Origin: an uncultured Gemmatimonadota bacterium
GTDB lineage: Bacteria > Gemmatimonadota > Gemmatimonadetes > Palauibacterales > Palauibacteraceae
Assembly: GCA_964546375.1 (NCBI GenBank)
Contig: CAZJJO010000001.1
Location: 5,614 to 59,934 of the forward strand
Length of the DNA: 54,321 nucleotides
Direction: 5' to 3'
This document shows positions 20,052 through 47,984 of the stretch, piece after piece (positions within the stretch are counted from its first letter, which is position 1; each line of letters starts with the position of its first letter). The notes under the pieces were generated by a model that worked only from the letters and a program-made list of their open reading frames with translations, ran no database searches and was not told the DNA's origin. Both the position numbers and the translations under genes were made by a program.

Positions 20052-20134
20052 TCGCGGGGGCGTCCCGCCGGAGTCCCGCCCCGGCGCCGGCTCGGGCTCC
20101 CGACCGGCCGACACGGCACCGACGAGGAGGCAAC

Positions 20135-20563: not shown

Positions 20564-20585
20564 CGCACCCGACCGGGAGGCGAGC

Positions 20586-21047: not shown

Positions 21048-21082
21048 GCGCCGGTGGCAGCCCCCCCGGGACGCGGGGGCGG

Positions 21083-24474: not shown

Positions 24475-27297
24475 ATGAGCGACCGGGTCTTCCTGTCCTG
24501 GAAGGAGCCGGCGCTGCCGCAGGCGGCCGACCGGCTCGCCGACGGGTACGCCCGGGCAGGCGAGCTCCCTCTGGACGACGTCCTGGTGGTCGTCCCCGGG
24601 CGCCGGGCAGGACGGCGGCTCACCGAGCTGCTGGTCGGCGAGGCCGAGGCCCGGGATCTGGTGCTCACCCCGCCTCGGACGCCCACGATCGGGGCCCTGC
24701 CCGAGCTCCTGTACGAGCCGAGTTCGCCGCTGGCCACTTCCGCGCTGTCCCGACGCGTGTGGACCGAAGCCCTGGTATCTCTGGACCGGGAGCGCCGCTC
24801 CGAGGTCTTCCCGGATCCGCCCGACGACGGCGACCTCCACGGCTGGACGCGGCTGGCGGAGCTCGTCCACGGGCTCCATCGAGAGACGGCGCGCGAAGGC
24901 CTCGACTTCTCCGGCGTGGCCCGGGCCTGCAGAGAGGGGGAAGGATTCGACGACGGGAGCCGCTGGAATCTCCTCTCGGAGGTCCAGAAGCGCTATCGGC
25001 GCCGGCTCCGGGAGTTGGGCTACGTGGATCGGGACGAGGCGCGGCTCCGGGCGGTGGAGGACGATCGCGTCGGGGCGGACCGGGAGATCGTCCTGGTGGG
25101 CGTCGTCGAGATCCCGGGGATCGTCCGATCCATGCTTCGCCGGGCGGGCGTCGCAGTCACGCCGCTGGTCCACGCGCCGGAGGACCTCGCGGACGCCTTC
25201 GACGATCTCGGCTGTGTCCGTGCCCGGACCTGGAGCGAACGGGAGATCGAGATTCCCGAGGAGATCGTCGCTCTTCGCGGCCGACCGCCCTCGCAGGCGG
25301 ACGAGGCCGTCCGCCGTCTCTCCGGGAGCGGCCGGGATCTGGCCCCCGACGAGATCACGGTCGGTGTGCCGAACGAGGAGGTGGTCCCGTACCTGGAGCA
25401 GCGCTTCCGGGCCTACGGGATCCCCCACCGCCGCGGCGCCGGTACGGACCTGCCGCTCACCGGCCCCTACCGGCTGCTCGCCGCGGTCGCCGACTACCAG
25501 GACGGACAGCGGTTCGAGGACTTCTCCGCGCTCCTGCGGCACCCCGAGGTCTCGCGAGCGACCGGGGTCACGGGGGCGCTGGAGGCGGCCGACCGGCACT
25601 TCAGCGAGCGGTTGCCCGCCCGCGCTCCCCTCCGACCGGAGATCGCGGGGGAGCGGGGCGACCGTCGGTTCGAGCAGGTCGCCCGGTCGCTGGACGAGAG
25701 CCTCCAGCTCCGGCGCCTCGCCGGTCGGCGACCGCTGAGCGAGTGGATGCCCGAGGTCCTGGCGCTGCTCCGAAGGGTCTACGGCGGCCGGGAGGTCGAC
25801 CGCACCAGCAGCTCGGGACGGTCGACCGTCGAGGCGCTGGAGGTCGTCCGCGACGCGGCCGCCGAGCTCCATCGACTGCCCGAGGAGGTCGACGTGTCCT
25901 GCTCCGGAGCGGCCGCGATCCGGGTCCTCCTCTCGGAGATCCGGGACGCGTCGGTGCCTCCCCTGCCCGACAGCACGGCGGTGGAGTTGCTGGGCTGGCT
26001 CGAGCTCCACCTGGACGACGCGCCGGTCCTGGTGATCACCGGGTTCGACGAGGATCACGTCCCCGCCACGGTGAGCGCAGATCCCTTCCTGCCCGACGGG
26101 CTCCGCAGCCGGCTCGGTCTGGTCGACAACGAGTGGCGCCACGGCCGGGACGCCTACCTTTTCGCGGCCATCCTCGCCTCGCGGGAGGAGACCCACGTCG
26201 TCGTGGGCCGGCGGAACGCGGACGGGGATCCGCTCCGCCCCAGCCGGCTCCTGCTGGCCGCCTCCGGCCGGGAGCTCGCCCGGCGGGCCCGGCGCCTCTT
26301 CACCGACGAGGTCCCCTCGCCGGCCCCGCTGCCGCGGCTGGGGGGACGGCCGGCGGAGGAGAGCCGCTTCCGGACCCCTCCCGAGCCGGAGCTCGAGATC
26401 GATCCGCCGCCCGAGAGCCTCGGCGTGACCGAGTTCGGCCTCCTGCTCCGGGATCCCTACCGGTGGGCCCTCGAGCACCGGCTCGGCCTGGAGGCGGTGG
26501 ACGACCGGCGCCGCGAGCTCGACGGCCTCCAGTTCGGAGGGCTCGCCCACGAGGTGCTCCGCCGGTTCGGGGAGTCGCCCGCAGTTCGGTCCGCGGATCC
26601 GGAGAGGATCAGGGACCGGCTTCACCGGGAGCTGGACGAGGTGGCGGGCGATCGCTACGCCGGCGCTCTGCCGGCGGTGCGCGTCCAGATCGAGCAGCTC
26701 CGTGCCCGTCTCTCCGACTTCGCGGCCTGGCAAGCCGATCGGGTGCGCGAGGGATGGGAGACGAGGGCCGTGGAGGTCGGGACGCCCGAGGGCGGGGTGC
26801 CGCTGGAGGTCGACGGGGAGCCGGTCGGGGTCCGGGGGCGGATCGACCGGGTCGATCGCCACCGGGAGACCGGTCGGTGGGAGGTTCTGGACTACAAGAC
26901 CTCGGCCACCGCCCGGGAACCGGAGAAGCACCATCGGAAGCGCGGAGAATGGATCGACCTCCAGTTGCCGCTCTATCGGCACCTGCTGTCCGGTATCGCG
27001 GGGGAGGGAGCGCTCCCGGCGGAACTGGCCGACCCCGGCCGCCGGGTGGACCTCGGGTTCGTGAATCTCTCCCGGGACGGGACGGACCGGGCCGTGGCCT
27101 CGTGGTCTTCGGAGGAGCTGGAGCGCGCCCTGGAGGCGGCAAGGAGCGTGGTCCGGCAGCTGCGCTCCGGGAAAGTGCGGTACCGGGAGGACGCCGACGC
27201 CCCCGGGGGAGAGGCTCTCGCGCCGCTCCTGGGCGAGGGCCGGCTGCGGGCGCGGCGCCGCTCGGCAGAGCGTCCGGAGGGGAAGGAAACGGCGTGA
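24475..27297 (+). CDS. AddB/RexB-like PD-(D/E)XK nuclease subunit (no P-loop, no Fe-S cysteines)
   Basis: 940 aa. The C-terminus has GRIDRVDRH...WEVLDYKTS...QLPLY (PD-(D/E)XK). It is coupled by a GTGA overlap to the AddA-like gene. ATG at 24475. Confidence 0.8.
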   Translation: MSDRVFLSWKEPALPQAADRLADGYARAGELPLDDVLVVVPGRRAGRRLTELLVGEAEARDLVLTPPRTPTIGALPELLYEPSSPLATSALSRRVWTEALVSLDRERRSEVFPDPPDDGDLHGWTRLAELVHGLHRETAREGLDFSGVARACREGEGFDDGSRWNLLSEVQKRYRRRLRELGYVDRDEARLRAVEDDRVGADREIVLVGVVEIPGIVRSMLRRAGVAVTPLVHAPEDLADAFDDLGCVRARTWSEREIEIPEEIVALRGRPPSQADEAVRRLSGSGRDLAPDEITVGVPNEEVVPYLEQRFRAYGIPHRRGAGTDLPLTGPYRLLAAVADYQDGQRFEDFSALLRHPEVSRATGVTGALEAADRHFSERLPARAPLRPEIAGERGDRRFEQVARSLDESLQLRRLAGRRPLSEWMPEVLALLRRVYGGREVDRTSSSGRSTVEALEVVRDAAAELHRLPEEVDVSCSGAAAIRVLLSEIRDASVPPLPDSTAVELLGWLELHLDDAPVLVITGFDEDHVPATVSADPFLPDGLRSRLGLVDNEWRHGRDAYLFAAILASREETHVVVGRRNADGDPLRPSRLLLAASGRELARRARRLFTDEVPSPAPLPRLGGRPAEESRFRTPPEPELEIDPPPESLGVTEFGLLLRDPYRWALEHRLGLEAVDDRRRELDGLQFGGLAHEVLRRFGESPAVRSADPERIRDRLHRELDEVAGDRYAGALPAVRVQIEQLRARLSDFAAWQADRVREGWETRAVEVGTPEGGVPLEVDGEPVGVRGRIDRVDRHRETGRWEVLDYKTSATAREPEKHHRKRGEWIDLQLPLYRHLLSGIAGEGALPAELADPGRRVDLGFVNLSRDGTDRAVASWSSEELERALEAARSVVRQLRSGKVRYREDADAPGGEALAPLLGEGRLRARRRSAERPEGKETA

Positions 27298-30200
27298 GCG
27301 GGCGGGCGCCCTCCTTTCCCCGGGAGCTGATCCGTGCCTCGGCCGGGACGGGGAAGACCTTCCAGATCTCCAACCGGATCATCGGACTCCTGGCCGAGGG
27401 GGTGGAGCCGGGCCGGATCCTGGCGTCCACGTTCACCCGGAAGGCGGCCGGCGAGATCCTCGACCGCGTCCTGTTTCGGCTGGCGGAGGGGGCGCTGGAC
27501 GCCGACGCTGCCCGACGGCTCGCCGACCACGCCCTCCTGGAGGGGCGGGACGAGGCGGGGCTGGGCGGTGAGGACGCACTGGCGGTCCTCGACCGGCTCG
27601 TCCGTCGTCTCCACCGCATCGACGTGGGCACGCTCGACGCCCTCTTCGTCCGGATGGCCCGGAGCTTCACCCTGGAGCTCGGCCTGCCGCCCGGGTGGAC
27701 CATTGCCGACGCCGCCGTTCGGGAACGGCTCCGTTCCGAGGCCGTCCAGGCCGCGCTGGAGGGGGGCGATCCCGACGCGATGGTCGAGCTCCTCCGGATC
27801 TCCGCGGGGGGGCGGACGCCGCGACGGGTCCACGACCGGCTGGTCGACGAGGTGGGCACCCTCCGGCGCCATCATCTGGAGATCGACCCCGAAGCGGGGG
27901 ATCCGTGGTCGCCGTTCCGCGACCGGGAGCCTCCGGAAGACGTCGAGTCCACGTGCAGGGAACTGGCGGAGCGGCTGTCCCGGATCGAGCCGCCGACGAA
28001 CAAGGGGGGCGGGCCGAACAAGCGGTGGCTCTCCTCCCTGGAGGACGCCGTCGAGGCGCTCCGGGAGCGGGACTGGGAGGCCTTCTGGCGGAAGGGGCCC
28101 CCGGCCAAGTTCCTGGCGGGCGAGCGGACCTACTGCCGGAAGCCGTTCCCCGAGGGGCTGGACGAGGTCCTCGAGGAGGCCCGTGCCGTGGCGGCGGCCG
28201 ATCTCGCCCGGACGTTCGAGCGGGAGGCGCAGGCGCTGGGCCGGATCGCGCGCCGATACCACCGGGCCCTCCGCGCCGAACAGCGGCGGGCCGGAGCCTA
28301 CGGGTTCCGGGACGTCGCCCAGCTCCTTGGGGGACCGGAGGCCGTCGGTGGACGGGAAGACCTCCATCACCGGCTGGACCGGCGATCGGAGCACGTCCTG
28401 CTGGACGAGTTCCAGGACACGTCGACCCCCCAGTGGCGGGCGCTCCGCCCGCTGGTCGACCGGGTGGCTCTGGATCCCGCCCCGGATCGTTCGACGGTCG
28501 TGGTGGCCGACGCCAAGCAGTCCATCTACGGGTGGCGCGGCGCGGATCCGGAGATCGTCGACCGGGTGGGTCGTCGCTACGAGCTCGAACCCGGCACGCT
28601 GCGCGAGAGCTGGCGGTCGAGTCCGGTGGTGTTGTCCTTCGTCAACCGGCTCTTCGGCGAGATCGAGGCGAACCCGGTCCTTCAGGACCTCGATCACGGA
28701 CCGGACGTCGCCGCCGAGTGGGGGGAGTCGTTCGAAGAGCACCGGCCGGCCTCGCCGCTACGGGACCGTCCGGGGTACGTGGCCGTGGAGATCGGACCCG
28801 ACGACGACGGCCGGGGCGCCGACCGGCCGGGCCTGATGGCCCGGGCCGCCGACCGGGTGGCCCGGATCCACGGAGAGGCGCCGGGGGCCGAGATCGGCGT
28901 CCTGGTCCGCCGGAACAGGACGGTCGCCCGCCTCATCCACGAGCTCCGGGACCGGGGGCTCGAGGCCAGCGAGGAGGGCGGCACCTCCGTCGACGACGCC
29001 GCCCCGGTGGCGGCGCTGCTGGCGCTCCTCCGGCTGGCGGACCACCCGGACCACCGGGTTGCCCGCTATCACGTCGCCGCCTCGCCCCTCGGTCCGATCC
29101 TCGGCTATACGGACCACGATCACGACGGGCGGGCGAGGGCCCTCGCCGACCGGGTCCGGACCCGCCTGCTCCGGGACGGCTACGGCGAGACGCTGTCGGG
29201 GTGGGCCGAAGATCTGGCGCCCGCGGTGAACGCGAGCGAGCTGCGGCGGCTCGAGCAGCTCGTGGAGCTCGGCTTTCAGTGGGAGCGGCGCACGACGCTG
29301 CAGCCCGGCGACTTCGTCCGGTTCGTGGAGGACGAGACGGTCGAGGACCCGCTCTCCACCCCGGTCCGGGTGATGACCGTCCATCAGGCCAAGGGCCTGG
29401 AGTTCGACGTGGTGGTGCTGCCCGAGCTCGAGGATTCGCTGGACACCGGAAGGGTCGAGACCGCGCTTCCCGAGCGCGACCCCGCCAGCGGGCTCGTCAG
29501 GCGCGTCTTTCCGGCCGTGCCGTCGCACCTCCGCCCCCTATTTCCGGAGATGGCGACCGCCCTGCGCCAGCTTCGGACCGCCTCGATACGGGACGAGCTG
29601 AGCTGGCTCTACGTCGGGGCCACGCGGGCTCGCCACGCGCTCCACCTGATCATGGCCGCCGGGGACGGGACGAGCGACGCGAGCTCCTTCGCCCGGCTGG
29701 TCCGGGCGGCGATCGGTCACCACGGGGAGCCGACGGCCGAGGGCGAATTGTTGTTCGAAGCCGGCGACGCGGAGTGGTTTCGCGCGGTCGAAGGCATGGA
29801 GGAGGGGGAGGGTCGCCCGGACCCCGGCGAGGTCGATCTCCGCGTGGACACCGCGGCTCCACGGAGCCGGATTTTCGCCCGGCGGAGTCCGTCGGACCTG
29901 GCGGCGGGGGGCGAGGTGGACCCCGAACGGATCCTGAGCCTCGACACCACCGACGAGCACCGGCACGGGGCGGTCGTCCATCGGTGGTGCGAGCGGATCG
30001 GCTGGATCGAGGACGGAGTTCCGGGGCGGGAGGCGATGAAGTCCGCGGCTCGCTCCGCGGCGCCGGAGCTTCCCGCGGAGGAGGTCGAGCGGCTGATCGG
30101 CCGGTTCCGCGATTGGATGGAGGCGGAGGCGGTGGTCGAGGTCCTGTCCCGCGGCCCTACCGCGGCCCGGCTGCGGGCCCGGTGCGGAACGGCGGAGGAC

Positions 30201-30518
30201 CTGCGGCTGGAGCGGGAGCGGCGGTTCGCCCGGCGCGCGGGAGACGAGGTCGTGTCGGGCGCGATCGACCGGCTGGTGCTCGCGCTCGACGGGGAGGGTC
30301 GGGTGGTCGGGGCCGAGGTCCTGGACTTCAAGACCGACCCGGTGGCGGACGACGCCGAGGTCCTGGAGGAGCGGCGCGAGGCCTACGCGCCGCAGCTGAG
30401 CGCGTACCGGACGGCGGTCACCGAGCTGTACGGGCTGGCCGGTACGGACGTGGCGGCCCGTCTGGTCTTCCTCGTCCCCGGTGCGGTCCTCGAGGTCCCG
30501 CAGGGGAGGGCCCCGTGA
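27294..30518 (+). CDS. AddA/RexA-like UvrD-family helicase-nuclease
   Basis: RASAGTGKTF (Walker A), LLDEFQDTS, YGWRGA and VHQAKGLEFDVVVL. The C-terminal nuclease motif is GAIDRLV...AEVLDFKTD...QLSAY. GTG at 27294. Confidence 0.88.
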   Translation: MSGRAPSFPRELIRASAGTGKTFQISNRIIGLLAEGVEPGRILASTFTRKAAGEILDRVLFRLAEGALDADAARRLADHALLEGRDEAGLGGEDALAVLDRLVRRLHRIDVGTLDALFVRMARSFTLELGLPPGWTIADAAVRERLRSEAVQAALEGGDPDAMVELLRISAGGRTPRRVHDRLVDEVGTLRRHHLEIDPEAGDPWSPFRDREPPEDVESTCRELAERLSRIEPPTNKGGGPNKRWLSSLEDAVEALRERDWEAFWRKGPPAKFLAGERTYCRKPFPEGLDEVLEEARAVAAADLARTFEREAQALGRIARRYHRALRAEQRRAGAYGFRDVAQLLGGPEAVGGREDLHHRLDRRSEHVLLDEFQDTSTPQWRALRPLVDRVALDPAPDRSTVVVADAKQSIYGWRGADPEIVDRVGRRYELEPGTLRESWRSSPVVLSFVNRLFGEIEANPVLQDLDHGPDVAAEWGESFEEHRPASPLRDRPGYVAVEIGPDDDGRGADRPGLMARAADRVARIHGEAPGAEIGVLVRRNRTVARLIHELRDRGLEASEEGGTSVDDAAPVAALLALLRLADHPDHRVARYHVAASPLGPILGYTDHDHDGRARALADRVRTRLLRDGYGETLSGWAEDLAPAVNASELRRLEQLVELGFQWERRTTLQPGDFVRFVEDETVEDPLSTPVRVMTVHQAKGLEFDVVVLPELEDSLDTGRVETALPERDPASGLVRRVFPAVPSHLRPLFPEMATALRQLRTASIRDELSWLYVGATRARHALHLIMAAGDGTSDASSFARLVRAAIGHHGEPTAEGELLFEAGDAEWFRAVEGMEEGEGRPDPGEVDLRVDTAAPRSRIFARRSPSDLAAGGEVDPERILSLDTTDEHRHGAVVHRWCERIGWIEDGVPGREAMKSAARSAAPELPAEEVERLIGRFRDWMEAEAVVEVLSRGPTAARLRARCGTAEDLRLERERRFARRAGDEVVSGAIDRLVLALDGEGRVVGAEVLDFKTDPVADDAEVLEERREAYAPQLSAYRTAVTELYGLAGTDVAARLVFLVPGAVLEVPQGRAP

Positions 30519-36583: not shown

Positions 36584-37512
36584 ACCCGTCCGGGGCCTCC
36601 GACCTGCTGGCCCGCCTGCCCGACCGCGTCACCGGGCTGGCCTTCCGGGACCTCCTCCTCTGGCTGGCCCTGGCCCTGGCGGTGGCCGTCGTGGTCCGGA
36701 TCGTCCGCCGGTGGGTGGACCGGGAGATCGAGGACGTCAACCGCCGGCACAAGGTCCGCAAGGCGGTGGGCTACACCGGCGTCGCCGTGGTGCTGATGGC
36801 CGGGGTGGCGATGCTGGTGGGCCACTTCACCTCGGTGGCCGCCGTGCTGGGGATCCTGGCCGCGGGCGCGGCGGTGGCCCTCCAGGACACCGCGAAGAAC
36901 GCGGTGGGCTGGCTGTACCTCTCCAGCCGGTCCGGGCTGGCCCCCGGGGCTCGCGTGGAGGTGGACGGCGTCGTGGGGGAGATCATCGACGTGGGCGTGA
37001 TGAAGACCACCGTCCTGGAGGTGGGCCACCTGGTGGAGGGGCGCCAGTCCAGCGGGCGCCTGGCCTCGATCCCCAACGCGAAGTTCATGAACCAGTCCGC
37101 CCTCTACTCGCCCGACTACGCCCCCTGGGCCTGGCACGAGACGAGCTTCCTGCTCACCTACGAGAGCGACTGGGAGCGGGGGGCGGAGCTGCTGGAGGAG
37201 CTGGGCGAGGAGCTGCACGGGGAGCTGGAGTCGGAGATGATGGAGGGCTTCCGGCGGCTGGAGCGGAACTTCGCGTTCAAGCACGGCCCCCTCACCCCCA
37301 TCGTCTACGTCCAGGCCCGGGACTCGGGCGTCCAGCTCACCCTCCGGTTCCTGACCCACATCCGACGCCGCCGGGGGTCGGAGGACCGGCTGGTGCGCGC
37401 CGTCCTCCGGGCGGTCGACCGGGAGCCGGAGCTGGAGATCGCCTATCCCACCTGGCGCATCTACCGCCGCGGGGAGGAGCGGGACGAGGGGGCGGGCGCG
37501 CTGCCCGGCTGA
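36580..37512 (+). CDS. mechanosensitive ion channel (MscS) family protein
   Basis: GTG at 36580 overlaps the upstream stop (GTGA). It has TM helices followed by GARVEVDGVVGEIIDVGVMKTTVLE (MscS beta-domain signature). Confidence 0.85.
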   Translation: MNPSGASDLLARLPDRVTGLAFRDLLLWLALALAVAVVVRIVRRWVDREIEDVNRRHKVRKAVGYTGVAVVLMAGVAMLVGHFTSVAAVLGILAAGAAVALQDTAKNAVGWLYLSSRSGLAPGARVEVDGVVGEIIDVGVMKTTVLEVGHLVEGRQSSGRLASIPNAKFMNQSALYSPDYAPWAWHETSFLLTYESDWERGAELLEELGEELHGELESEMMEGFRRLERNFAFKHGPLTPIVYVQARDSGVQLTLRFLTHIRRRRGSEDRLVRAVLRAVDREPELEIAYPTWRIYRRGEERDEGAGALPG

Positions 37513-37671
37513 GCGCGGCCGCGGTCGCTCCGCCCCCGGCTCCGGCGCGGCGGGCGGCGGCGGGCCGGAAGGCGGGTCGACGGCTTGTCCCCGGCCCCGT
37601 CTCCGGCGATCTTGCCGGCCGAGCCCGGCGCCGTCCCCGGCGTGACTCGCCCCCCGACAGGAAGCCCCGAC

Positions 37672-38436
37672 ATGCGCATCGTCACCGCCCTCGCGACCGT
37701 CCTCGTGCTGGCCGTCGCCTCCGCCTGCGGCGGCGACGGCCGGGCCGCTCCGTCCGACCGGTCCGCCGGCGACCGGGCCGGGGCCGGCGGGGCGGCCGCC
37801 GCCGCGGCGGAGGAGGGGCGTCCCTCGGGTCAGGAGAGTCCGCTCCGCTCGCCGGAGAGCGAGGCGATGAACGCCCGGGCTCCCGACGTCTTCCGGGCGG
37901 TCCTGCACACCACCGAGGGGCCGGTCACGGTCGAGGTCCGCCGGGACTGGGCGCCCCGGGGGGCGGACCGGTTCTACAACCTGGCCCGTCACGGATTCTT
38001 CGAGGACGCCCGTTTCTTCCGGGTGATCGAGGGGTTCGTGGCGCAGTTCGGGCTCTCGGGCCGGCCCGAGCTGGACCGTCTCTGGCGGCGCCATCCCATC
38101 CCGGACGACTCGGTGCGCCGGAGCAACGAGCGGGGCACGCTCACCTTCGCCAGCGCGGGCGAGGACACGCGCACCACCCAGCTCTTCGTCAACCTGGCCG
38201 ACAACGAGCGTCTGGACGGGATGGGCTTCGCGCCCATCGGCCGGGTCGTCGACGGGATGGCGGCCGTCGATTCCCTGTATGCCGGCTACGGCGACGGCCC
38301 GCCCCGCGGAAACGGACCCTCCCAGCAGGAGATCCTGGAGCGGGGCAACGAGTATCTGGAGGCGGAGTTCCCCGAGCTGGATCGGATCGAGTCGGTCGAG
38401 GTCCGGGAGGGCGCGGGCGAGTCCGGGGAGGGATGA
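37672..38436 (+). CDS. cyclophilin-type peptidyl-prolyl isomerase lipoprotein
   Basis: Lipobox LAVASAC, then FYNLARHGFFEDARFFRVIEGFVAQFG...GTLTFA...TQLFVNL. ATG at 37672. Confidence 0.9.
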   Translation: MRIVTALATVLVLAVASACGGDGRAAPSDRSAGDRAGAGGAAAAAAEEGRPSGQESPLRSPESEAMNARAPDVFRAVLHTTEGPVTVEVRRDWAPRGADRFYNLARHGFFEDARFFRVIEGFVAQFGLSGRPELDRLWRRHPIPDDSVRRSNERGTLTFASAGEDTRTTQLFVNLADNERLDGMGFAPIGRVVDGMAAVDSLYAGYGDGPPRGNGPSQQEILERGNEYLEAEFPELDRIESVEVREGAGESGEG

Positions 38437-38578
38437 GTCCCCCGGCGCCCCCCGTCGGCGGGGGCGTCGGCCCGGACGCACGGCCCCCGGAGGGACCGGC
38501 CCGCTCCGCGCCGGCTCGGGCCGGAGCGCGCGCCGCCCGAAGGATCGGAGCCAACGGATCACGGGAGGGAGCAGGACG

Positions 38579-38890
38579 ATCGGAGAGCTGGTCGAGCTCT
38601 GTCACGTCTCGGAGCTGAACCCGGGCGAGGGCACGACGGTCCACGCCGCCGACCGGGACGTCGCCGTCTTCAACGTCGACGGCGAGTTCCACGCCCTGGA
38701 GAACGCCTGCACGCACGAGGGCGGGCCCCTGGGCCAGGGGATGCTCTTCGGATCGACGGTGAGCTGTCCCTGGCACTTCGCCGAGTTCGACGTCACCACC
38801 GGCGAGTCGCTGGACGACATCGCCCCCTGCGACGCCAGGACGTATCCGGTGACCGTGGAGGACGGGGTGGTGAAGGCGGAGCTCGACTGA
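38579..38890 (+). CDS. Rieske [2Fe-2S] ferredoxin-like protein
   Basis: CTHEGGPL...CPWHFAEFD is the CxH...CxxH Rieske motif. There is no canonical in-frame start between the cyclophilin gene and the first Rieske motif. I placed the start at ATC 38579, which is 7 nt after GGGAGGGAG. CTG at 38588 is an alternative. Confidence 0.7.
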   Translation: MGELVELCHVSELNPGEGTTVHAADRDVAVFNVDGEFHALENACTHEGGPLGQGMLFGSTVSCPWHFAEFDVTTGESLDDIAPCDARTYPVTVEDGVVKAELD

Positions 38891-38908
38891 TCCTCCGGGA
38901 GGGAGCCC

Positions 38909-40147
38909 ATGGCAGCGTCGAAGCCGTCCCCGGCCCCCGCGTCCCGGCCGCCGGCGACGGTCGCGGCGGCCGCGGCGGCGCTCCTGGCCCTCGGCTGCGG
39001 CGGCGACGGCGTCCCGGTGGCCCCGGGGGACGGAGGCGCGGATCCGTCCCCGCCCGCCTCGTGGTCGGCGGTGGCGGCGGGCGACGGCTTCACCTGCGCG
39101 TCGGCCGGGGACGGCCGGACCTTCTGCTGGGGGAGCCGCCGGGCGGGCCGGATCGGCGACGGCGGGACCGAGGGCGTGGCCGAGCGGCCGGTCCGGGTGG
39201 AGGCGAACCTGCGGCCGGACCTCCGGCTGGACACGGTGGTCGCCGGTCCGGGGCACGCCTGCGGCCTCACCGACGACGGCGAGGCCCTGTGCTGGGGACG
39301 AAACGACGCGGGCCAGCTCGGAGCCGGCGCCCCCGGGCGCTGTCCGACCGGCGACGACCGTGTCGCCTGCTCGACGCGGGCGGTCCGGGCGGCCGCCCCG
39401 CTCCGCTTCCGCGCCCTCTCGGCCGGCGGCTCCCACACCTGCGGCATCACCGGGGACGGGTTCCTCGCCTGCTGGGGGAGCAACGCCGCGGGCCAGCTCG
39501 GGATCGGGCGGTTCGGGGGCGGAGGCGCCGGGCCCCGCGCCGTCCTCCGGGCCACGGAGCGGGTGGCCGCCGGGGCGCTGCACACCTGCGCGCTGGCCCT
39601 GGGCGGCGACGTCCTGTGCTGGGGCGCCAACGGGGACGGCCAGCTCGGCGACCGGACGTTCGTCCCGCGCACCGCGCCGATCGTGGCCACCGCCCGGGGG
39701 GGCTCCGGCCTGGCGGCGGGGGCCCGCCACACGTGCGTGCTGGCGCCGGCCCACTGCTGGGGGCGGGGCGCCGAGGGGCAGATCGGCGACGGCGAGTCGC
39801 GGACGGTGCCGTTCCCGGCGCGGGTGACGGGCGACCACGACTTCGAGGCGCTGGCCGCCGGCGCCTTCCACACCTGCGGGCTGGACGCCGGCGGCCGGGC
39901 CTTCTGCTGGGGGCGGGGCGACGAGGGGGCCCTCGGGACGGGAGCGACGCCCGAGCTCCGCACGAGCCCCGTCCCGCTGGCGGAGGACCGCGCCTGGCGG
40001 ACGCTGTCGGCCGGCCGGGGCCACACCTGCGGCGTCGACGCCGACGGCGCCCTGCTGTGCTGGGGACGCAACGACCGGGGCCAGGTCGGCGACGGCACGC
40101 GTCAGGACCGGTCGGTCCCGACGGCCGTCGGCGACCCGGCGGGGTGA
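38909..40147 (+). CDS. RCC1-repeat (beta-propeller) lipoprotein
   Basis: Lipobox LLALGC. Repeated units follow, such as HTCG...G...CWG.N..GQLG (seven or so blades). ATG at 38909 is preceded by GGGAGGGAG. Confidence 0.88.
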   Translation: MAASKPSPAPASRPPATVAAAAAALLALGCGGDGVPVAPGDGGADPSPPASWSAVAAGDGFTCASAGDGRTFCWGSRRAGRIGDGGTEGVAERPVRVEANLRPDLRLDTVVAGPGHACGLTDDGEALCWGRNDAGQLGAGAPGRCPTGDDRVACSTRAVRAAAPLRFRALSAGGSHTCGITGDGFLACWGSNAAGQLGIGRFGGGGAGPRAVLRATERVAAGALHTCALALGGDVLCWGANGDGQLGDRTFVPRTAPIVATARGGSGLAAGARHTCVLAPAHCWGRGAEGQIGDGESRTVPFPARVTGDHDFEALAAGAFHTCGLDAGGRAFCWGRGDEGALGTGATPELRTSPVPLAEDRAWRTLSAGRGHTCGVDADGALLCWGRNDRGQVGDGTRQDRSVPTAVGDPAG

Positions 40148-40237
40148 GCCGGCCGACGGGGGTCGGCCGGAGGCCGGGGCGAGGGCCCGGGCACGAGCCG
40201 AGATCGAGCACGAACCGGTGACCGGGAGAGGACGACG

Positions 40238-41560
40238 ATGAGCGTGGGCGAGGCGACGGAGGCCGGCGTCGGGACGGAGCGCCTGAAGGCCTGGGTGGTG
40301 GAGGCCCGCCGCCGGAGCCTGGAGCTGGTGGCCGACCTGGACGACGACCAGCTCGTGGGGCCTCACCTGGACGTGATCAACCCGCTGCTCTGGGAGATCG
40401 GGCACGCGGCCTGGTTCCAGGAGCGATGGGTCCTGCGGCAGGGGATCGGTGCGTCGCCGATCCGCTCCGACGCCGACGACCTCTGGGACTCCATCGCCAT
40501 CCCCCACGACGACCGCTGGGAGCTGCCGCTGCCGGAGCGCGACGAGACGGTGGCCTACATGACGGACGTCCGCGACCGGGTGGTGGAGGCGCTGGAGCGC
40601 CGGCCGGAGGACGAGCGCCTGCGGTACCTGGCCCGGTACTCCGTCCACCACGAGGACATGCACGCCGAGGCCTACACCTATGCCCGACAGACGCTGGCCT
40701 ACCCCCGCCCCCCGATCTCCGAGGTCCCGTCCCGGCCGGAGGAGGGCGGCCCCCTGCCGGGCGACGTGGAGGTCCCGGGCGGGACCTACCGGCTCGGCGT
40801 CGAGCCGGACGGAGGCTTCGCGTTCGACAACGAGAAGTGGGCGCACGAGGTCGAGCTGGAGCCGTTCCGCATCGGCCGCGCCCCGGTCACGGCGGGAGAG
40901 TTCGCCGAGTTCGTCGAGGACGGCGGCTATCGCCGGCAAGAGCTGTGGAGCGAGGCCGGCTGGCGATGGCGCCGGGAGGCCGGGGCGGAGCGGCCGGCCT
41001 ACTGGCGGCGCGACGGGGAGGGCGGCTGGGAGGTCCGGAGGTTCCGGCGCTGGGAGCCGCTGGCGCCCCACCGGCCGATGATCCACGCGAACTGGCACGA
41101 GGCCCGGGCCTGGTGCCGGTGGGCCGGGCGCCGGCTGCCGACCGAGGCCGAGTGGGAGGCGGCGGCCGCGGCCGTCCCGGACGGCGGCGGGGGACTCGCC
41201 GGGGGGCGGCGCACCTATCCCTGGGGCGAGGAGGCGCCGTCCCCGGAGCGGCTGAACGCCGACTGGCGGGCCATGGGCACGGTGGACGTCGGCGCCCTGC
41301 CGGCGGGCGACAGCGCCTTCGGCTGCCGGCAGATGCTCGGCAACGTCTGGGAGTGGACCGTCGACGCGTTCGAGCCCTATCCCGGCTTCGAGCCCGACAT
41401 GTACCGGGAGTACTCCCGGCCCTGGTTCGGCGACCACCGGGTCCTGCGGGGCGGAGGGTGGCCGGCGCGCTCGCGCCTGCTTCGGAACACGGTCCGGAGC
41501 TTCTACACGCCCGACCGCCGCGACGTGTGGGCGGGCTTCCGCACCTGCGAGGCGACGTGA
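40238..41560 (+). CDS. senA: EgtB/SenA family sulfoxide/selenoxide synthase (DinB-like + FGE-sulfatase domains), likely selenoneine synthase by context
   Basis: The DinB-like N-domain carries the His triad candidates (WEIGHAAWF, SVHHEDMHAE). The FGE-type C-domain has ...NVWEWT...RVLRGGGW. It lies directly upstream of a SenB-type glycosyltransferase. Confidence 0.7.
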   Translation: MSVGEATEAGVGTERLKAWVVEARRRSLELVADLDDDQLVGPHLDVINPLLWEIGHAAWFQERWVLRQGIGASPIRSDADDLWDSIAIPHDDRWELPLPERDETVAYMTDVRDRVVEALERRPEDERLRYLARYSVHHEDMHAEAYTYARQTLAYPRPPISEVPSRPEEGGPLPGDVEVPGGTYRLGVEPDGGFAFDNEKWAHEVELEPFRIGRAPVTAGEFAEFVEDGGYRRQELWSEAGWRWRREAGAERPAYWRRDGEGGWEVRRFRRWEPLAPHRPMIHANWHEARAWCRWAGRRLPTEAEWEAAAAAVPDGGGGLAGGRRTYPWGEEAPSPERLNADWRAMGTVDVGALPAGDSAFGCRQMLGNVWEWTVDAFEPYPGFEPDMYREYSRPWFGDHRVLRGGGWPARSRLLRNTVRSFYTPDRRDVWAGFRTCEAT

Positions 41561-41600
41561 CGCCGGCGTCGGGCCGGCCGGCCGGAAGGGGAGGGACGGC

Positions 41601-42602
41601 GTGAGGGTCCTCCTGGTCAGCCCGAAGGACCCGGACGCCCGGTCCGGCAACGCCGTGACCGTCCGCCGCTGGGCCGGCCACCTCCGCGCCCTCGGCCACG
41701 GCACGGAGATCGTCCGGGGATGGGAGCCCGGGTCCGGGGAGGAGGCCGACCTGATGGTGGCGCTGCACGCCCGGCGCAGCGCCGACGCGGCGCTGGCCTG
41801 GCGACGGGAGCGCCCGGCGAGCCCGCTGGTGGTCGCGCTCACCGGCACCGACCTGTACCGGGACCTGGACGAGCACGAGGAGGCCCGGCGCGCCGTACGG
41901 GCCGCCGACCGCCTGGTGGCGCTCCAGGAGCGGGCCCCGGCCCGGCTCCCGCCGGAGCTGCGGGACCGCCTGCGGGTGATCCACCAGTCGGCCGAGCCCC
42001 CGGAGGATCCGCCTCCGCCCCTGGCGGACGTCTTCGAGGCCGCGCTGCTCTGCCACATGCGGCCGGTCAAGGACCCTTTCCGGGCCGCCGAGGCCGTCCG
42101 CCTGCTGCCCGAGGACTCGTCGATCCGGGTGACCCACGCCGGCCGCGCCCTCGGCGACGAGGCCCGCCGCCGGGCGGAGCGGGAGGACGCGTCGAACCCG
42201 CGCTACCGGTGGCTGGGCGAGCTGGACCGGGACGACGCCCTGCGCCTGCTGGCCCGGGCCCGGCTGCTGGTAGTGAGCTCGCGGCTGGAGGGCGGGGCCA
42301 ACGTGGTCACCGAGGCCCTGGCCTGCGGGACCCCGGTGCTGGCGTCCCGCATCGACGGCAGCGTGGGGCTGCTGGGGCCGACCTACCCCGGCTACTTCCC
42401 GGTGGGCGACACCGGGGCGCTGGCGCGGCTGCTCCGGCGGGCGGAGACCGACGGGGCGTTCCTGGAGCGGCTGGCCGAAGCCTGCCGCGGCCGGGCGGAG
42501 CTGGCCGACTCGGCCCGGGAGCGCGGGGCGTGGGCCGACCTGATGGAGGAGCTGGATCCGGCGGCCGAACCGCCCGGGATCGGGCCCGGCGGATCGGGGT
42601 GA
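41601..42602 (+). CDS. senB: TIGR04348/SenB-type glycosyltransferase (selenosugar synthase-like)
   Basis: MRVLLVSP...RSGNAVTVRRWAGHLRALGH...LMVALHARRSA...VVALTGTDLY...RVIHQSA...SSRLEGGANVVTEALACGTPVLASRIDGSVGLLGPTYPGYFPVGD matches my recollection of the family hallmarks. GTG at 41601 is preceded by GGGAGGGA. Confidence 0.65.
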   Translation: MRVLLVSPKDPDARSGNAVTVRRWAGHLRALGHGTEIVRGWEPGSGEEADLMVALHARRSADAALAWRRERPASPLVVALTGTDLYRDLDEHEEARRAVRAADRLVALQERAPARLPPELRDRLRVIHQSAEPPEDPPPPLADVFEAALLCHMRPVKDPFRAAEAVRLLPEDSSIRVTHAGRALGDEARRRAEREDASNPRYRWLGELDRDDALRLLARARLLVVSSRLEGGANVVTEALACGTPVLASRIDGSVGLLGPTYPGYFPVGDTGALARLLRRAETDGAFLERLAEACRGRAELADSARERGAWADLMEELDPAAEPPGIGPGGSG

Positions 42603-42618
42603 GCGGGCCGCCGCCGGA

Positions 42619-43479
42619 TCAGAGGGCGTCGAGGATCCGCTCCAGGCGCTCGGCGGCCCGGCCGGTCCCCAGGTTGCTGACATAGAAGCGCCGGACGCCC
42701 GCGTTCCGGAGACGCCGGATGGAGCGGGCGCAGATCTCCTCGGGCGCGTCCCCGCGCTCGAACGCCCGGGTGACCTCGTCGGCCGGCACGGGGAAGAAGT
42801 CCGACAGGTGCTCCAGGGTGTCGGGGTTCGCGCTCCGGTAGTAGAAGACGCCGAAGACACCGGGCAGCGAGAGGCCCCGGCGACGGACGGCCTCCAGGAA
42901 GGCCTCCACCCGGTCCAGGTGGTGGTGCGAGACCACCTGGGTGAGGTAGAACTCGGCGGTGAACGCCTCGTCCGCCAGGTAGCCCGCCTGGGTCTCCGGA
43001 TCCCGGTGGGGGTTGGCCCACCCGCCCAGGGCGAGCCCGGGGGTGCGTTCCCGGATCTTCCGCCGGAGCTGATAGGCGTGGTCCACGCACCGGGGCGGGC
43101 CCGTCGACCGGTCGCCGCCCAGCACCACCAGCGCCTCGAGGCCGGCCGAGTAGGCCCGGTCGGCGTAGCCCAGGCAGTAGGAGAGCGGGTGCTTGCAGGT
43201 GAGGAACGGAGCCATGAGCGACGGGTCCATGTCCCCGGCCAGGTTGGAGGTGAGGTGGAGGAGGTTCTCCTCCTCGGCCTCCCCGACCGCGTTGTCCGTC
43301 AGGAAGACCGGCGTCTCCCTCCGCTCGAGGCGGTGCATGGCGTGATGGAGGTCGATCCAGTCGGAGAGGCTGTCGCGCCCCGAGCCGTCGCGGCGAGGGG
43401 GACGGAACTCGGCCGCCACCAGGGGGGCGCGGCGACGCAGGCGACGGACGAAGGCGACGTCCTCGGGGCGGCGGTTCAT
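42619..43479 (-). CDS. methylenetetrahydrofolate reductase-like protein
   Basis: AEFRPPRRD..., ...TCKH... and ALVVLGGD are reminiscent of MetF family motifs. ATG at 43479, with TTG at 43491 as an alternative. Confidence 0.55.
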   Translation of the reverse strand: MNRRPEDVAFVRRLRRRAPLVAAEFRPPRRDGSGRDSLSDWIDLHHAMHRLERRETPVFLTDNAVGEAEEENLLHLTSNLAGDMDPSLMAPFLTCKHPLSYCLGYADRAYSAGLEALVVLGGDRSTGPPRCVDHAYQLRRKIRERTPGLALGGWANPHRDPETQAGYLADEAFTAEFYLTQVVSHHHLDRVEAFLEAVRRRGLSLPGVFGVFYYRSANPDTLEHLSDFFPVPADEVTRAFERGDAPEEICARSIRRLRNAGVRRFYVSNLGTGRAAERLERILDAL

Positions 43480-43544
43480 GGCGGCCGGCAAGCTAGCCGC
43501 CGCGGCCGCGCCGAAAAAGCGGCTTCGGCCGGGGGAAACGGCCG

Positions 43545-44312
43545 GTGAGCGGCGTGGAGGACCCGCCCGCCCCGCCGCCGAGGGAGCCGCTGGGCGGGCC
43601 GCTGGCGCCGGCCCGGCTGGTCGAGCGGCCGAACCGCTTCCTGGTCCGGGCGCGCCGGGAGGGGGAGCTGGTGGAGGCCCATCTCCCCAACCCCGGCCGG
43701 CTCGAGGAGCTGCTGGTGGACGGGCGGCGCCTGCGCCTGAGGCCGGCCCCGGAGGGCGCCGACCGCAAGACCGACTGGACGGCGGTGCTGGTGGAGACGC
43801 CGCAGGGGGACGGATGGGTGTCGCTCGACACCACCCTCCCGAACCGGCTGGTCGGGCGCGCCCTGCGACGCGGCTGGATCGAGGAGCTGGCGGGCTGGAC
43901 GCTCGAGGGGACGGAGGTGGCGCTGGGCGATTCGCGCCTGGACTTCGTCCTGTCCGACGGCGAGCGCCGGCTGGCGCTGGAGGTGAAGAGCGTGACGCTG
44001 GTCCGTGAGCGGGTGGGCCGCTTCCCCGACGCCGTCACCGCCCGGGGCACCCGCCACGTCCGGGAGCTGGCCGGGCTGGCCGGGCGCGAGGGCTGGTCCG
44101 CGGCCGTGCTCTTCGTCGCCCAGCGGCCCGACGTCGACCGGGTCGTCGCCGACGAGGCGATCGATCCCGCCTTCGCCGCCGCCCTGCGGTCGGCCCGCGC
44201 GGAGGGGGTGCGGGCCCTGGCGCGGCGCTGTCGGGTCGATCCCGCCGCGGTGGAGCTGGGAGGCGGGGTGCCGGTCGGCCGGTCCGACGGGGCCCGCCCG
44301 GCCGGGGGGTGA
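43545..44312 (+). CDS. sfsA: sugar fermentation stimulation protein SfsA (DNA/RNA nuclease fold)
   Basis: RPNRFLVRAR...EAHLPNPGRLEELL...SRLDFVL...LEVKSVTL...FPDAVTARGTRHVRELA. Confidence 0.88.
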   Translation: MSGVEDPPAPPPREPLGGPLAPARLVERPNRFLVRARREGELVEAHLPNPGRLEELLVDGRRLRLRPAPEGADRKTDWTAVLVETPQGDGWVSLDTTLPNRLVGRALRRGWIEELAGWTLEGTEVALGDSRLDFVLSDGERRLALEVKSVTLVRERVGRFPDAVTARGTRHVRELAGLAGREGWSAAVLFVAQRPDVDRVVADEAIDPAFAAALRSARAEGVRALARRCRVDPAAVELGGGVPVGRSDGARPAGG

Positions 44313-45520: not shown

Positions 45521-46426
45521 ATGGAGATCTTCGTCACCGGCGTCACCGGCCACGTGGGCGGCGCGGTGGCCCGCAGGCTCGCGGAAGCGGGCCACCGGGT
45601 CACCGGCCTGCTCCGGTCGGCGGGCAAGCGGGACCGCCTGGCGGACGCCGGGATCGAGCCCGTCTACGGCGACATGACCATCCCCGCCAGCTACCGGCCG
45701 GCCGCCCGGGAGCACGACGCGCTGATCCACTGCGCCTTCCGCGGGGAAGGGGACGCCGTCGGCGGCGACCGCACCGCGCTGGACGCCCTGCTCGACGCGG
45801 CCCGCCTGGGCGAGCGGCCCCGGACGGTGGTCTACACCTCGGGCTGCTGGGTGCTGGGCGACACCGGCGGCGAGGTGGCCGACGAGGACACGCCGGTGGA
45901 GGATCCCGCCGAGGTGGTGGGCTGGCGCCCCCGGCACGAGCAGATCGTCCTGGAGGCCGACGGCGAGGAGGGGCTCACCACCGCCGTCGTCCGGCCGGGC
46001 CTCGTCTACGGCGGCGCCGGCTCCCTCACCGGCCGCCTCTTCGCCACCGCCGAGCGGGAGGGAGCCGCCGAGGTGCCCGGCGACGGGGAACAGCACTGGT
46101 CGTTCGTCCATCGCGAGGACCTGGCGGATCTCTACCTGCGGGTGCTCGAGGAGGGGGCGTCCGGGATCTTCCACGGCGTGGACGGCGTGCCCGTGCCGGC
46201 CCGGGAGGCGGCGCGCGCGGCCTCGGAGGCGGCCGGCGCCGGCGGCCGGGTCCGCACCGTGGACGTCGAGGAGGCGCGCCAGGAGCTGGGGGCGATGGCC
46301 GACGCCCTCTGCCTGGACCAGCGGCTGGCCGCGCGCCGCTCGGCGGAGATCGGATGGGGGCCGGAGCGGCCCTGCTTCCCGGAGGCGGCCGAGGCGGCCT
46401 GCCGGGCCTGGCGGCAGGCACGATGA
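45521..46426 (+). CDS. NAD-dependent epimerase/dehydratase family protein
   Basis: [20 protein letters not shown] is a Rossmann GxxGxxG. ATG at 45521. This is the C-terminal part of track ORF 44930..46426. Confidence 0.85.
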
Positions 46427-47082
46427 GCGGCGCCGGCGGTCGGGCCGGGGGGGACGCGCCGGAGCGGCCCGTGCTCGGCTGGCGGGAATGGGCGCGGCTC
46501 CCGGGGCTGGGCGTGGACCGGATCAAGGTGAAGGTCGACACGGGCGCCCGCTCCTCCTCGCTCCACGCCTACGACGTCGAGCGGGTGGAGCACGACGGCG
46601 AGACCCACCTCCGCTTCCAGATCCACCCCGTCCAGCGGGACGACTCGGTGGTCGTCGAGGCCGAGGCGCCCCTGCACGAGGAGCGGAAGGTCCGCCCCTC
46701 GACGGGACGGCAGACGACCCGGCCCGTCGTCGTCACCGAGCTGGAGGTGGCGGGGCGACGGTTCTCGGTCGAGGTCACGCTGGCCAACCGCGACCGGATG
46801 GGCTTCCGGATGCTGCTGGGCCGCGAGGCCCTGGCGGGCCGCTTCCTGGTGGATCCCTCCGGCTCCTTCCTGGCCGGAGGCACCCGCCGGCGTCCGCCGG
46901 ACCGGTTCGGGGCGTCGGGAGAGGGGGACGACGGCGGGCCGGCACGGCCGGCCGACGCGAAGGACGCCGGGGGACCGGGACGCGGCGGCGCCCGGCGCGA
47001 CCCCACCGATCCGCCGCGCCAGGCGCCGGGAGCGGAGGGCGAGGGGGGAGGCGGCCCCGACGAGCCGGGAGGGGAAGGGTGA
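46423..47082 (+). CDS. RimB-like retropepsin-fold protease (COG4067, 'ATP-dependent zinc protease') with low-complexity tail
   Basis: ATG at 46423 overlaps the upstream stop (ATGA). [32 protein letters not shown]...[16 protein letters not shown]. It lies directly upstream of rimK, as in rimB-rimK arrangements. Confidence 0.8.
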
Positions 47083-47984
47083 AGCTCGGCATCCTGTCTC
47101 GGAAGGCCTCGCTCTACTCCACCCGCCGCCTGCGCGAGGCGGCCCGCGAGCGGGGGCACGAGGCCCGCGTCGTCAACTACCTCCGCTGCACGATGAACAT
47201 CACGGCCCGCCGTCCGGCGGTGGTCCTGGGCGAGGAGCGGCTGGCCTTCGACGCGGTCGTCCCCCGGATCGGGGCCTCCGCCACCTTCTACGGCACGGCC
47301 GTGGTCCGCCAGTTCGAGATGACCGGCACCTTCACGGCCAACGAGTCCCAGGCCGTCGCCCGGTCCCGCGACAAGCTCCGCGCCCTGCAGCTCCTCTCGC
47401 GGGAGGGGATCGACCTCCCGGTGACCGGCTTCGCGCACTCGGTGAAGGACACCGCGGCCCTGCTGGACCTGGTGGGCGGGCCGCCGGTGGTGGTGAAGCT
47501 GCTGGAGGGGACGCAGGGCCGGGGGGTCATCCTGGCGGAGACGCGGAAGGCCGCCGAGTCGGTGATCGACGCCTTCCGGCAGCTCGACGCCAACATCCTG
47601 GTGCAGGAGTTCGTGGCCGACGCGGGCGGCGAGGACCTCCGCGTCTTCGTCGTCGACGGGGAGGTGGTCGCCGCCATGGTCCGCCGCGCGGCCCCCGGCG
47701 AGTTCCGGGCCAACCTCCACCTGGGAGGCACCGCCGAGGAGGCGGAGCTGAGCGACGAGGAGCGGGAGATCTCCGTCCAGGCCGCCGAGTGCCTGGGGCT
47801 CGGGGTCTGCGGCGTGGACCTGTTGCGCTCGGGCCGCGGGCCGCTGGTCCTCGAGGTCAACTCGTCGCCGGGGCTGGAGGGGATCGAGTCGGCCACCGGC
47901 GTCGACGTCGCCGGCGCCGTGGTGGCCTACGTCGAGCGGGCCGTGGAGGCCGGCGCCTCGCCGCGGGGGCGCGGAGCGGGCTGA
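47079..47984 (+). CDS. rimK: RimK family alpha-L-glutamate ligase
   Basis: GTG at 47079 overlaps the upstream stop (GTGA). VKLGILSR...[11 protein letters not shown]...[14 protein letters not shown]...LVQEF...DLRVFVV...NLHLGG...GVDLL...[14 protein letters not shown]. Confidence 0.92.

Follow-up and report, generated by a model that had tools for sequence, protein, structure and literature searches.

The stretch of DNA that was analysed, referred to below as the window, covers 54,321 nt out of the 59,934 nt recorded for its contig, and 45 genes were called in it. Two of them lie side by side on the plus strand: a senA candidate (40238..41560), coding for a 440-residue predicted non-haem-iron selenoxide synthase of the SenA clade, and a senB candidate (41601..42602), coding for a 333-residue predicted selenosugar synthase, SenB, a GT-B Se-glycosyltransferase. 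An earlier reading of the sequence alone (the sequence-only reading) had placed the two genes at these positions, and both reading frames are indeed found there, intact and with a GC3 of 0.96, which is of the coding type. Purine-rich stretches resembling ribosome-binding sites precede each gene; the gap between them is 40 nt and senB has its own RBS-like GGAAGGGGAGGGA. A scan of 37400..43700 found no promoters or terminators, a null result from which nothing can be concluded for a Gemmatimonadota genome with 75% GC. The Rfam scan of the 54-kb window returned zero matches, and the window contains no tRNA. The sequencing runs that contain the region are DNA or unclassified soil metagenomes only; none is labelled as RNA.

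Upstream of the pair, on the same strand, are found a gene for a stand-alone Rieske [2Fe–2S] ferredoxin (38579..38890; PF00355, 65.7 bits), whose translation contains both Cys/His ligand motifs (CTH and CPWH), and a gene for an RCC1-repeat lipoprotein (38909..40147; PF25390, 315 bits). Downstream, a convergent MTHFR-like gene, a distant member of the MTHFR superfamily, occupies 42619..43491 on the minus strand; its product scores 22.4 bits against PF02219, just below the gathering score of 24, and its orthologue in the related locus L001 scores 26.7. The sequence-only reading described these neighbours correctly, but the setting is less noteworthy than it implied, the MTHFR-like gene being backbone and the RCC1 gene a passenger. 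In a related contig that has the same backbone (L124), a PPIase gene and the MTHFR-like gene converge directly, 43 nt apart, with nothing of the Rieske–RCC1–senA–senB series between them, so that this series can be delimited as a 4.2-kb block (38437..42618, plus strand) bounded by two backbone genes, PPIase and, on the right, the MTHFR-like gene. Judging from the contigs compared, the gene context of senA and senB is lineage synteny.

The contents of this block vary from locus to locus. The Rieske gene precedes senA in L001 and in L037 (14 nt away in the latter). In L123, RCC1 and a VTT gene come between the Rieske gene and senA, and L002, L004, L038, L036 and the block-less backbone L124 lack the Rieske gene. 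It is thus linked with senA and senB in one subclade only, and any role that it has there is putative. The RCC1 gene, found in L123 (71% identity), is missing from L001 and L037, and a remnant of its 5' end persists in L001. It is a passenger whose presence between Rieske and senA varies, and we rejected it as a sen accessory on account of these two absences. The MTHFR-like gene was likewise rejected, since it is a widespread backbone gene which occurs without senA and senB in L124 and which, in L125, adjoins metH and an MTHFR fusion. It has 7,946 homologues at E ≤ 1e-5; of the 120 listed, those that have names are from Gemmatimonadota. By sequence it has no relative among solved structures, nor is it related to the Meth_synt_2 genes close to the sen genes of L004 and L041.

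The product of 40238..41560 has the architecture that is common to EgtB and SenA, as had been proposed: Pfam recognises an N-terminal DinB_2 domain (PF12867) and a C-terminal FGE-sulfatase domain (PF03781). The score, the active-site motif and the distance tree all point to SenA rather than EgtB. The protein scores 507.7 bits against the NCBIfam SenA equivalog model NF041186 (curated cutoff 420) and 334.3 bits against the EgtB model TIGR03440, which is under the cutoff of 360. Alignment to the structures of EgtB, SenA and OvsA predicts that H56, H138 and H142 bind iron and that Y389 is the catalytic tyrosine, that H90 and Y423 line the selenosugar pocket, and that Y392, S421 and F422 line the hercynine pocket. 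The signature of the SenA selenosugar pocket is the replacement of Arg87 and Asp416, the thiol-binding residues of EgtB, by His and by Phe or Tyr, respectively, and this is what H90 and Y423 represent. Fold, three-histidine iron site and catalytic tyrosine are those of SenA from Variovorax (V.) paradoxus (PDB 8K5I and 8K5J), as are the tyrosine and phenylalanine that contact hercynine and the adjacent senB. EgtB type I from M. thermoresistibile (PDB 4X8B; 278 bits) has the same fold and iron site, but its motif, xSDH--RRHQHYYNWDR, has SDH, RR, Q, W and D where the candidate has NEH, HR, M, F and Y. In a neighbor-joining tree (distance-based, with no support values), the clade of the candidate has P0008 as its sister and lies inside the SenAs that have Asn at the hercynine contact (N-type), far from EgtB-I.

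The best match among solved structures is not SenA from V. paradoxus (252 bits with phmmer) but OvsA from Halomonas utahensis (PDB 8U41, 8U42 and 8UX5; 347–355 bits). The candidate could on this basis be an OvsA of the ovoselenol type, which acts on free histidine, and this would explain why no egtD is found in the window. We consider this very improbable. The residues that define OvsA, Met401, Gln430 and Ala431 (...HYMQAYR), correspond to Tyr392, Ser421 and Phe422 in the candidate, and Y392 and F422 are of the type found in enzymes that use hercynine, whereas OvsA has Met and Ala at these positions; it is on this motif that we rejected the OvsA identity despite the structural match. The 54-kb window contains no methyltransferase resembling OvsM, and no ovsM adjoins the candidate, although ovs genes can be chromosomally separated. 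The candidate comes from a Gemmatimonadota lineage, unlike OvsA, which is from aquatic gammaproteobacteria; what the two share is the selenosugar-pocket motif NEH..HR..HMH..Y. The higher score is explained by the SenA tree, in which OvsA branches on the candidate's side and V. paradoxus SenA on the other main branch, and by an extra segment in the candidate, some 50 residues long, which V. paradoxus SenA lacks. The OvsA-YNF mutant, which is SenA-like (8ux5), gives the 355 bits, above the 347 bits of wild-type OvsA. From its sequence, we therefore assign the product to the SenA clade; it is neither OvsA nor EgtB.

The second gene had been recognised from its motifs as a member of the TIGR04348/SenB family. 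All of these motifs are present and the score of 377 bits exceeds the curated cutoff of 300. SenB is represented among solved structures by PDB 8JJQ, 8FBX and 8K5U; the protein is 42% identical to the structures of SenB from V. paradoxus (E 8e-59), and the residues whose importance was established by mutagenesis are kept. It conserves N17, T20, H56, R59, T81, T83, D84, Q129, R154, V156, K157, E230 and E238. Among these, K157 corresponds to the catalytic Lys158, and N17, T20 and E230 to the residues N20, T23 and E231 that determine sugar selectivity; the selenophosphate pocket (N20, H58, R61, T83, T85 and R155) is represented by N17, H56, R59, T81, T83 and R154. Unlike the SenBs of known structure, the candidate has Ala in place of T214, and EGGANV in place of EGGAHV. 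We rejected the latter change (H235 to N) as an unusual feature, since it is a common natural variant, found in 18 of 43 SenBs.

The arrangement of the two genes, adjacent on the same strand and 40 nt apart, is that of the senABC cluster described by Kayrouz et al. (2022), but the partners are missing. The definition of this cluster places a selD-type senC within about 5 kb of senA and senB; no senC adjoins the candidate, in contrast to V. paradoxus senA, and no SelD is encoded anywhere in the window. Pfam found neither SelD, EgtD, SelA/B nor a methyltransferase among its 45 called genes, and tblastn with three SelD queries (which were verified) and two EgtD queries gave no match in it. The sequence-only reading was right about this absence, although it is not the remarkable trait that was implied. 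Of the 2,353 TIGR04348 genes surveyed by Kayrouz et al., no more than 827 formed part of a complete set of the three sen genes within 5 kb, and so an arrangement without linked senC/selD is implied for many of these genes. In our own census of 25 senA–senB loci, each flanked by 5 kb or more on either side, 8 have neither selD nor egtD nearby, that is, about a third of them. The find is therefore mostly ordinary apart from the change in the SenA pocket that is described below. The nearest canonical relatives, of the N-type, are senA–senB–egtD operons that lack selD within 10 kb, and egtD and selD occur in the flanks of none of the eight loci of the candidate's own clade, the window included.

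The pair could be sulfur-based, converting thiophosphate into a thiosugar and then into ergothioneine, or it could be a non-functional relic in a genome without selenophosphate synthetase. The lack of selD in the 54 kb and in the flanks of any locus of the clade is consistent with this, but we think that it is quite improbable: thioglucose is a very poor substrate of SenA, the intact reading frames combine coding-type GC3 with conserved catalytic residues, and the pair is kept across at least seven related loci at 73–85% SenA identity. Besides, the same contig carries a gene which implies that the genome encodes a working SelD. This is an OsmC-family gene (20586..21047, plus strand) with an in-frame UGA at 20775..20777, which had been put forward as a second selenium signal and appears to be genuine. 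The match of the read-through product to PF02566 (53.5 bits) spans the UGA, and four full-length homologues have Cys at this position. Among 120 clusters of homologues, 114 are called as truncated ORFs, 94 of which start with MLGT, the residues that follow the UGA. A SECIS-like hairpin that follows the UGA is no more stable than shuffled sequence (z = 0.04) and was not counted as evidence. Altogether the read-through and the homologues are convincing, and the gene probably codes for a selenoprotein; an unlinked SelD is very likely to be present in the genome.

The best explanation for the pair is that it forms a two-gene selenoneine module in the genome of a soil Gemmatimonadota, to which we give a probability of about 70% based on the sequence comparisons; selenoneine is the most likely product. 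By analogy with the enzymes from V. paradoxus, SenB would convert selenophosphate and a UDP-sugar, most likely UDP-GlcNAc, into a 1-seleno-sugar, which SenA, a non-haem-iron, O2-dependent enzyme, would couple to the imidazole C2 of hercynine. The resulting selenoxide would lose the sugar by elimination, and reduction would then yield selenoneine. Selenophosphate would be supplied by an unlinked housekeeping SelD, needed for the selenoproteins of the organism, and hercynine by an EgtD encoded elsewhere in the genome, or by uptake. We infer these substrates and this product, the existence of SelD and EgtD outside the window, and the co-transcription of senA and senB. Taken at face value, the pair adds soil Gemmatimonadota to the known range of the selenoneine pathway, and shows again that the sen module often consists of senA and senB alone, with selenophosphate from a housekeeping SelD. 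It is a copy of the known SenA/SenB pathway, mostly ordinary save for a small lineage-specific change in the SenA pocket.

Only this change is of wider interest; the sequence-only reading had noticed neither it nor the match to OvsA. The Asn by which SenA contacts the trimethylammonium group of hercynine (Asn395 in V. paradoxus SenA) is Ser421 in the candidate. This Asn is otherwise conserved in the hercynine-using enzymes of this class: it is part of all published motifs of hercynine-using non-haem-iron sulfoxide/selenoxide synthases (NHISS). The composite motif published for SenA, xNEH--HRHxHYYN(F/Y)(F/Y)R, includes it; that of the candidate reads NEH HR HMH Y Y S F Y R, with 13 of the 14 mappable positions SenA-type and Ser421 as the exception, which puts the protein in the class 'Other' under the strict published criteria. 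In a small Gemmatimonadota clade, Ser or Thr at 421 co-varies with three pocket-proximal features, H137, Y146 and the loss of Trp419. The four changes are fixed in every member of the clade that was found (11 sequences and three further loci, L037, L038 and L123) and absent from the 112 nearest relatives outside it, all of which keep Asn at 421. A metagenome scan for further loci of this clade gave only relatives at 63% identity or less, all with Asn.

It may be that the pocket of this clade has been remodelled, so that the enzyme selenylates an acceptor other than hercynine, such as a partly methylated histidine, or does so with altered regiochemistry, giving a selenoimidazole that is not selenoneine, possibly with the help of the Rieske protein. 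We regard this as unlikely, but as the least unlikely of the alternatives. The fixation of the four changes and the 'Other' motif argue for it, as does the precedent of OvsA, in which three pocket mutations suffice to switch between histidine and hercynine; also, egtD is joined to senA and senB in the nearest N-type relatives but adjoins them in no locus of the clade. Yet the aromatic hercynine contacts Y392 and F422 are kept, the hydroxyl group of Ser or Thr could stand in for the dipole of Asn, residues 137, 146 and 419 differ among experimentally validated enzymes as well, and the block contains no methyltransferase or other tailoring gene. Since the clade is one lineage, the co-variation counts as a single evolutionary event.

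The selenoneine reading thus remains the one that we prefer. We note that Ser421, the associated changes at 137, 146 and 419, and the eight clade-locus flanks devoid of egtD and selD were counted against it. There is a small chance that enzymes of the Ser/Thr421 clade accept a different histidine derivative and lead to a selenoimidazole other than selenoneine or ovoselenol, which would make the clade a possible route to a further selenometabolite. Because three mutations are enough for the histidine/hercynine switch, a natural clade with a remodelled pocket offers a cheap test of how the choice of substrate is encoded.

The 40238..42602 stretch holds a real senA–senB pair, one of whose two products departs slightly from its family. 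The window (GC about 75%) has 45 likely genes, picked by frame-specific GC3, and both open reading frames of the pair are intact, with a GC3 of 0.96. The product of the first (40238..41560, + strand, 440 aa) contains the Pfam domains DinB_2 and FGE-sulfatase, the architecture recognized in the sequence-only reading; it scores 507.7 bits with the NCBIfam SenA model NF041186 (cutoff 420) versus 334.3 bits with the EgtB model TIGR03440, under the cutoff of 360. In a distance (neighbour-joining) tree without support values, it falls within the SenA family and does not cluster with EgtB. The second gene (41601..42602, + strand, 333 aa) starts 40 nt 3' of senA, just after a GGAAGGGGAGGGA stretch, and its earlier assignment to SenB is borne out by 377 bits with TIGR04348 (cutoff 300). 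We consider it likely, with a probability of about 0.7, that this pair makes selenoneine, fed by unlinked SelD and EgtD supplies.

Unexpectedly, the top solved-structure matches of the window SenA are OvsA, the ovoselenol enzyme (347–355 bits), followed by the EgtB of M. thermoresistibile (278 bits) and the SenA of V. paradoxus (252 bits). This order is explained by the tree, in which the window SenA is nested in the SenA family, with OvsA branching on the same side and V. paradoxus SenA lying on the other, Burkholderiales, side, and by the fact that the V. paradoxus enzyme is about 50 residues short relative to that of the window.

Non-haem-iron sulfoxide/selenoxide synthases have been sorted by a composite active-site motif, which is xNEH--HRHxHYYN(F/Y)(F/Y)R in SenA, xNEH--HRHxHYMQAYR in OvsA and xSDH--RRHQHYYNWDR in EgtB-I (Kayrouz et al. 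2024, PMC11030361). Mapping by pairwise phmmer alignments and MAFFT gives N48 E53 H56 / H90 R93 / H138 M141 H142 / Y389 Y392 / S421 F422 Y423 / R427 for the window SenA. The selenosugar-type His90 and Tyr423 replace the thiol-binding Arg and Asp of EgtB, and the hercynine-type Tyr392 and Phe422 stand where OvsA has Met and Ala; in line with this, the SenA-like triple mutant OvsA-YNF (8ux5) outscores wild-type OvsA against the window SenA. The sole motif departure from V. paradoxus SenA is Ser421, the equivalent of Asn395, whose side chain touches the trimethylammonium group of hercynine; owing to this Asn→Ser/Thr pocket variant, the window SenA formally fails the published SenA motif.

This clade-specific variant is the small novelty of the find. 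Asn occupies position 421 in all 112 N-type homologues of the comparison set (about 60–68% identity), whose source names, where given, are Acidobacteria, Terriglobia, Poribacteria, Thermodesulfobacteriota and similar; it is also found in all non-Gemmatimonadota SenA homologues adjoining the SenBs retrieved, and in the metagenome loci where the equivalent residue is readable. Among near homologues, Ser or Thr is confined to one tight monophyletic clade (at least 73% identity) comprising the window, loci L001, L002, L004, L037, L038 and L123, and the proteins P0001-P0007; of these, L001 and L004 belong to Gemmatimonadota MAGs, and L002 is labelled just "uncultured bacterium". Elsewhere in a library of representatives at 50% identity, Ser appears at this site in only three proteins (P0250, P0349, P0373), all more divergent. 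Three other changes are fixed in the clade and separate it from its closest relatives: H137, which adjoins the iron ligand H138, Y146, one helical turn past the iron ligand H142, and the loss of Trp419, two residues ahead of position 421. The sister sequence L036/P0008 is intermediate.

Together with Ser/Thr421, these changes point to a mildly remodelled pocket in the clade. Such a pocket might mean that the enzyme uses a different substrate, which we regard as unlikely: the hercynine-type Tyr392 and Phe422 are present. The window SenB, 42% identical to that of V. paradoxus, keeps every SenB residue shown important by mutagenesis, that is, the sugar-selectivity triad N20/T23/E231, the selenophosphate pocket H58/R61/T83/T85/R155, and Q131, V157, the catalytic K158 and E239 (PMC10891094). 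Its EGGANV in place of EGGAHV recurs in 18 of 43 sampled SenBs, some of which adjoin SelD and a canonical SenA.

If the pair makes selenoneine, its partners would be encoded elsewhere. As noted earlier, the window has neither a selenophosphate synthetase nor egtD: Pfam detects no AIRS/SelD, PF10017/EgtD, methyltransferase or SelA/SelB among the 45 called genes, the window contains no tRNA, and tblastn finds no SelD in it with an E. coli SelD sequence and SelD genes from compared loci as queries (all four locus SelD genes checked pass TIGR00476, and two of the four served as queries). The absent senC had been thought noteworthy, which does not hold, since such absence is not rare: egtB and selD both lie within 5 kb of only 827 of 2,353 dereplicated TIGR04348 genes (10.1101/2022.04.13.486033), and among 25 senA-senB loci flanked on each side by 5 kb or more, window included, selD is within 5 kb in 13, egtD in 11 and neither in 8, the window being one of these. 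Where the closest N-type relatives lie on long contigs (L039/L040, L042), senA, senB and egtD form operons of overlapping genes and the 10 kb around them contain no selD. L041 has egtD, senA, selD and senB all together, and none of the eight Ser/Thr-clade loci, window included, shows egtD or selD in the flanking sequence available.

The second selenium signal proposed earlier, a UGA-containing OsmC gene (20586..21047, + strand, UGA at 20775..20777), is upheld. Read-through yields a product of 153 aa in which the OsmC domain extends across the UGA, and in four full-length homologues this very position is occupied by Cys (...ATGGCMLGTLNG...). Mis-called selenoproteins typically show up as short ORF calls that start after a UGA; 114 of the best 120 homologue clusters are annotated as ORFs of 89–110 aa, and 94 start with MLGT, the residues right after the UGA. 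Named matches are mostly from Gemmatimonadota. A hairpin 3' of the UGA is no better than shuffles and an Rfam scan of the window gives no match, so the case rests on comparative evidence. The protein scores 28.7 bits with the NCBIfam model OsmC_like_Se NF041052 (cutoff 95) and may belong to a separate Sec-OsmC family. SelD is obligatory in any Sec-decoding genome; the simplest source of selenophosphate for SenB would be an unlinked housekeeping SelD.

The surrounding genes are ordinary too. The neighbours are those described earlier, a Rieske ferredoxin (38579..38890), an RCC1-repeat lipoprotein (38909..40147) and a convergent MTHFR-like gene (42619..43491, - strand; MTHFR match of 22.4 bits, under the gathering score of 24), beyond which lies SfsA; that this setting is special is not sustained. 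L124 shares with the window its left backbone (AddB-like nuclease, DAG kinase, PDZ, LOG, MscS-like, PPIase) and its right one, from the MTHFR-like gene through aconitase, and in L124 the PPIase is directly convergent on the MTHFR-like gene (10876..10919, the counterpart of window 38437..42618). Therefore, Rieske-RCC1-senA-senB is a 4.2-kb block (38437..42618), either present or absent, and the MTHFR-like gene belongs to the backbone.

The content of the block varies. L123 is a contig of 273 kb; its SenA has the same motif as that of the window and is 85% identical to it. The gene order there is PPIase, Rieske, RCC1, a VTT/DedA-family membrane protein, senA, senB, a PAS sensor, the convergent MTHFR-like gene, SfsA and, further on, aconitase. 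In L001 and L037, RCC1 is missing and Rieske-senA-senB precedes the convergent MTHFR-like gene; 14 nt separate Rieske from senA in L037, and a vestige of the 5' end of RCC1 survives in L001. RCC1 is a passenger. The other Ser/Thr subclade (L002, L004, L038) has NUDIX-senA-senB then a PhnD-type ABC transporter, and the sister L036 has PPIase-senA-senB; neither has the Rieske gene, whose linkage to senAB is thus limited to one shallow lineage. The Rieske protein might, for example, hold the iron of SenA in its reduced state, a conceivable but unsupported function. The sequencing runs that contain the window sequence are soil metagenomes, and none of them is labelled RNA; the window makes up most of a contig recorded as 59,934 nt.

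The MTHFR-like protein (about 290 aa, 7,946 homologues at E ≤ 1e-5) is a distant member of the MTHFR superfamily, very widespread in Gemmatimonadota, mostly with no Pfam match, and sequence comparison gives it no relative of solved structure. In L125, its gene has metH and an S-methyltransferase-MTHFR fusion as neighbours (10001..16381), suggesting a part in one-carbon metabolism or the methionine cycle.

Among the compared loci, a PhnD-type binding protein follows senAB in L002 (5990..9458, with the remaining ABC transporter genes) and L004 (11181..13408), and MetE-like (Meth_synt_2) genes adjoin sen genes in the unrelated L004 and L041 (8742..9851); both may be accessory functions. The senB of L004 (10001..11184) is split across two reading frames, owing to a frameshift or to an error in the assembly. 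L036 has genes for histidine utilisation (17708..21356: urocanase, an imidazolonepropionase-like amidohydrolase and an arginase-family protein), starting some 6 kb past senAB on its downstream side. In the window, adjacent genes for a PD-(D/E)XK nuclease and a UvrD-type helicase (24247..30518, + strand, about 1,016 and 1,074 aa) look like an AddAB-like pair, the nuclease gene being also part of the conserved L124 backbone. Four ORFs of coding-type composition (1660..2721, 12360..12860 and 13967..15274 on the - strand, 20207..20563 on the + strand) have no Pfam or NCBIfam match. A gene for the associated putative zinc protease (PF05618), upstream of one for a RimK ATP-grasp ligase, forms with it a pair (46423..47984, + strand) kept in L123.
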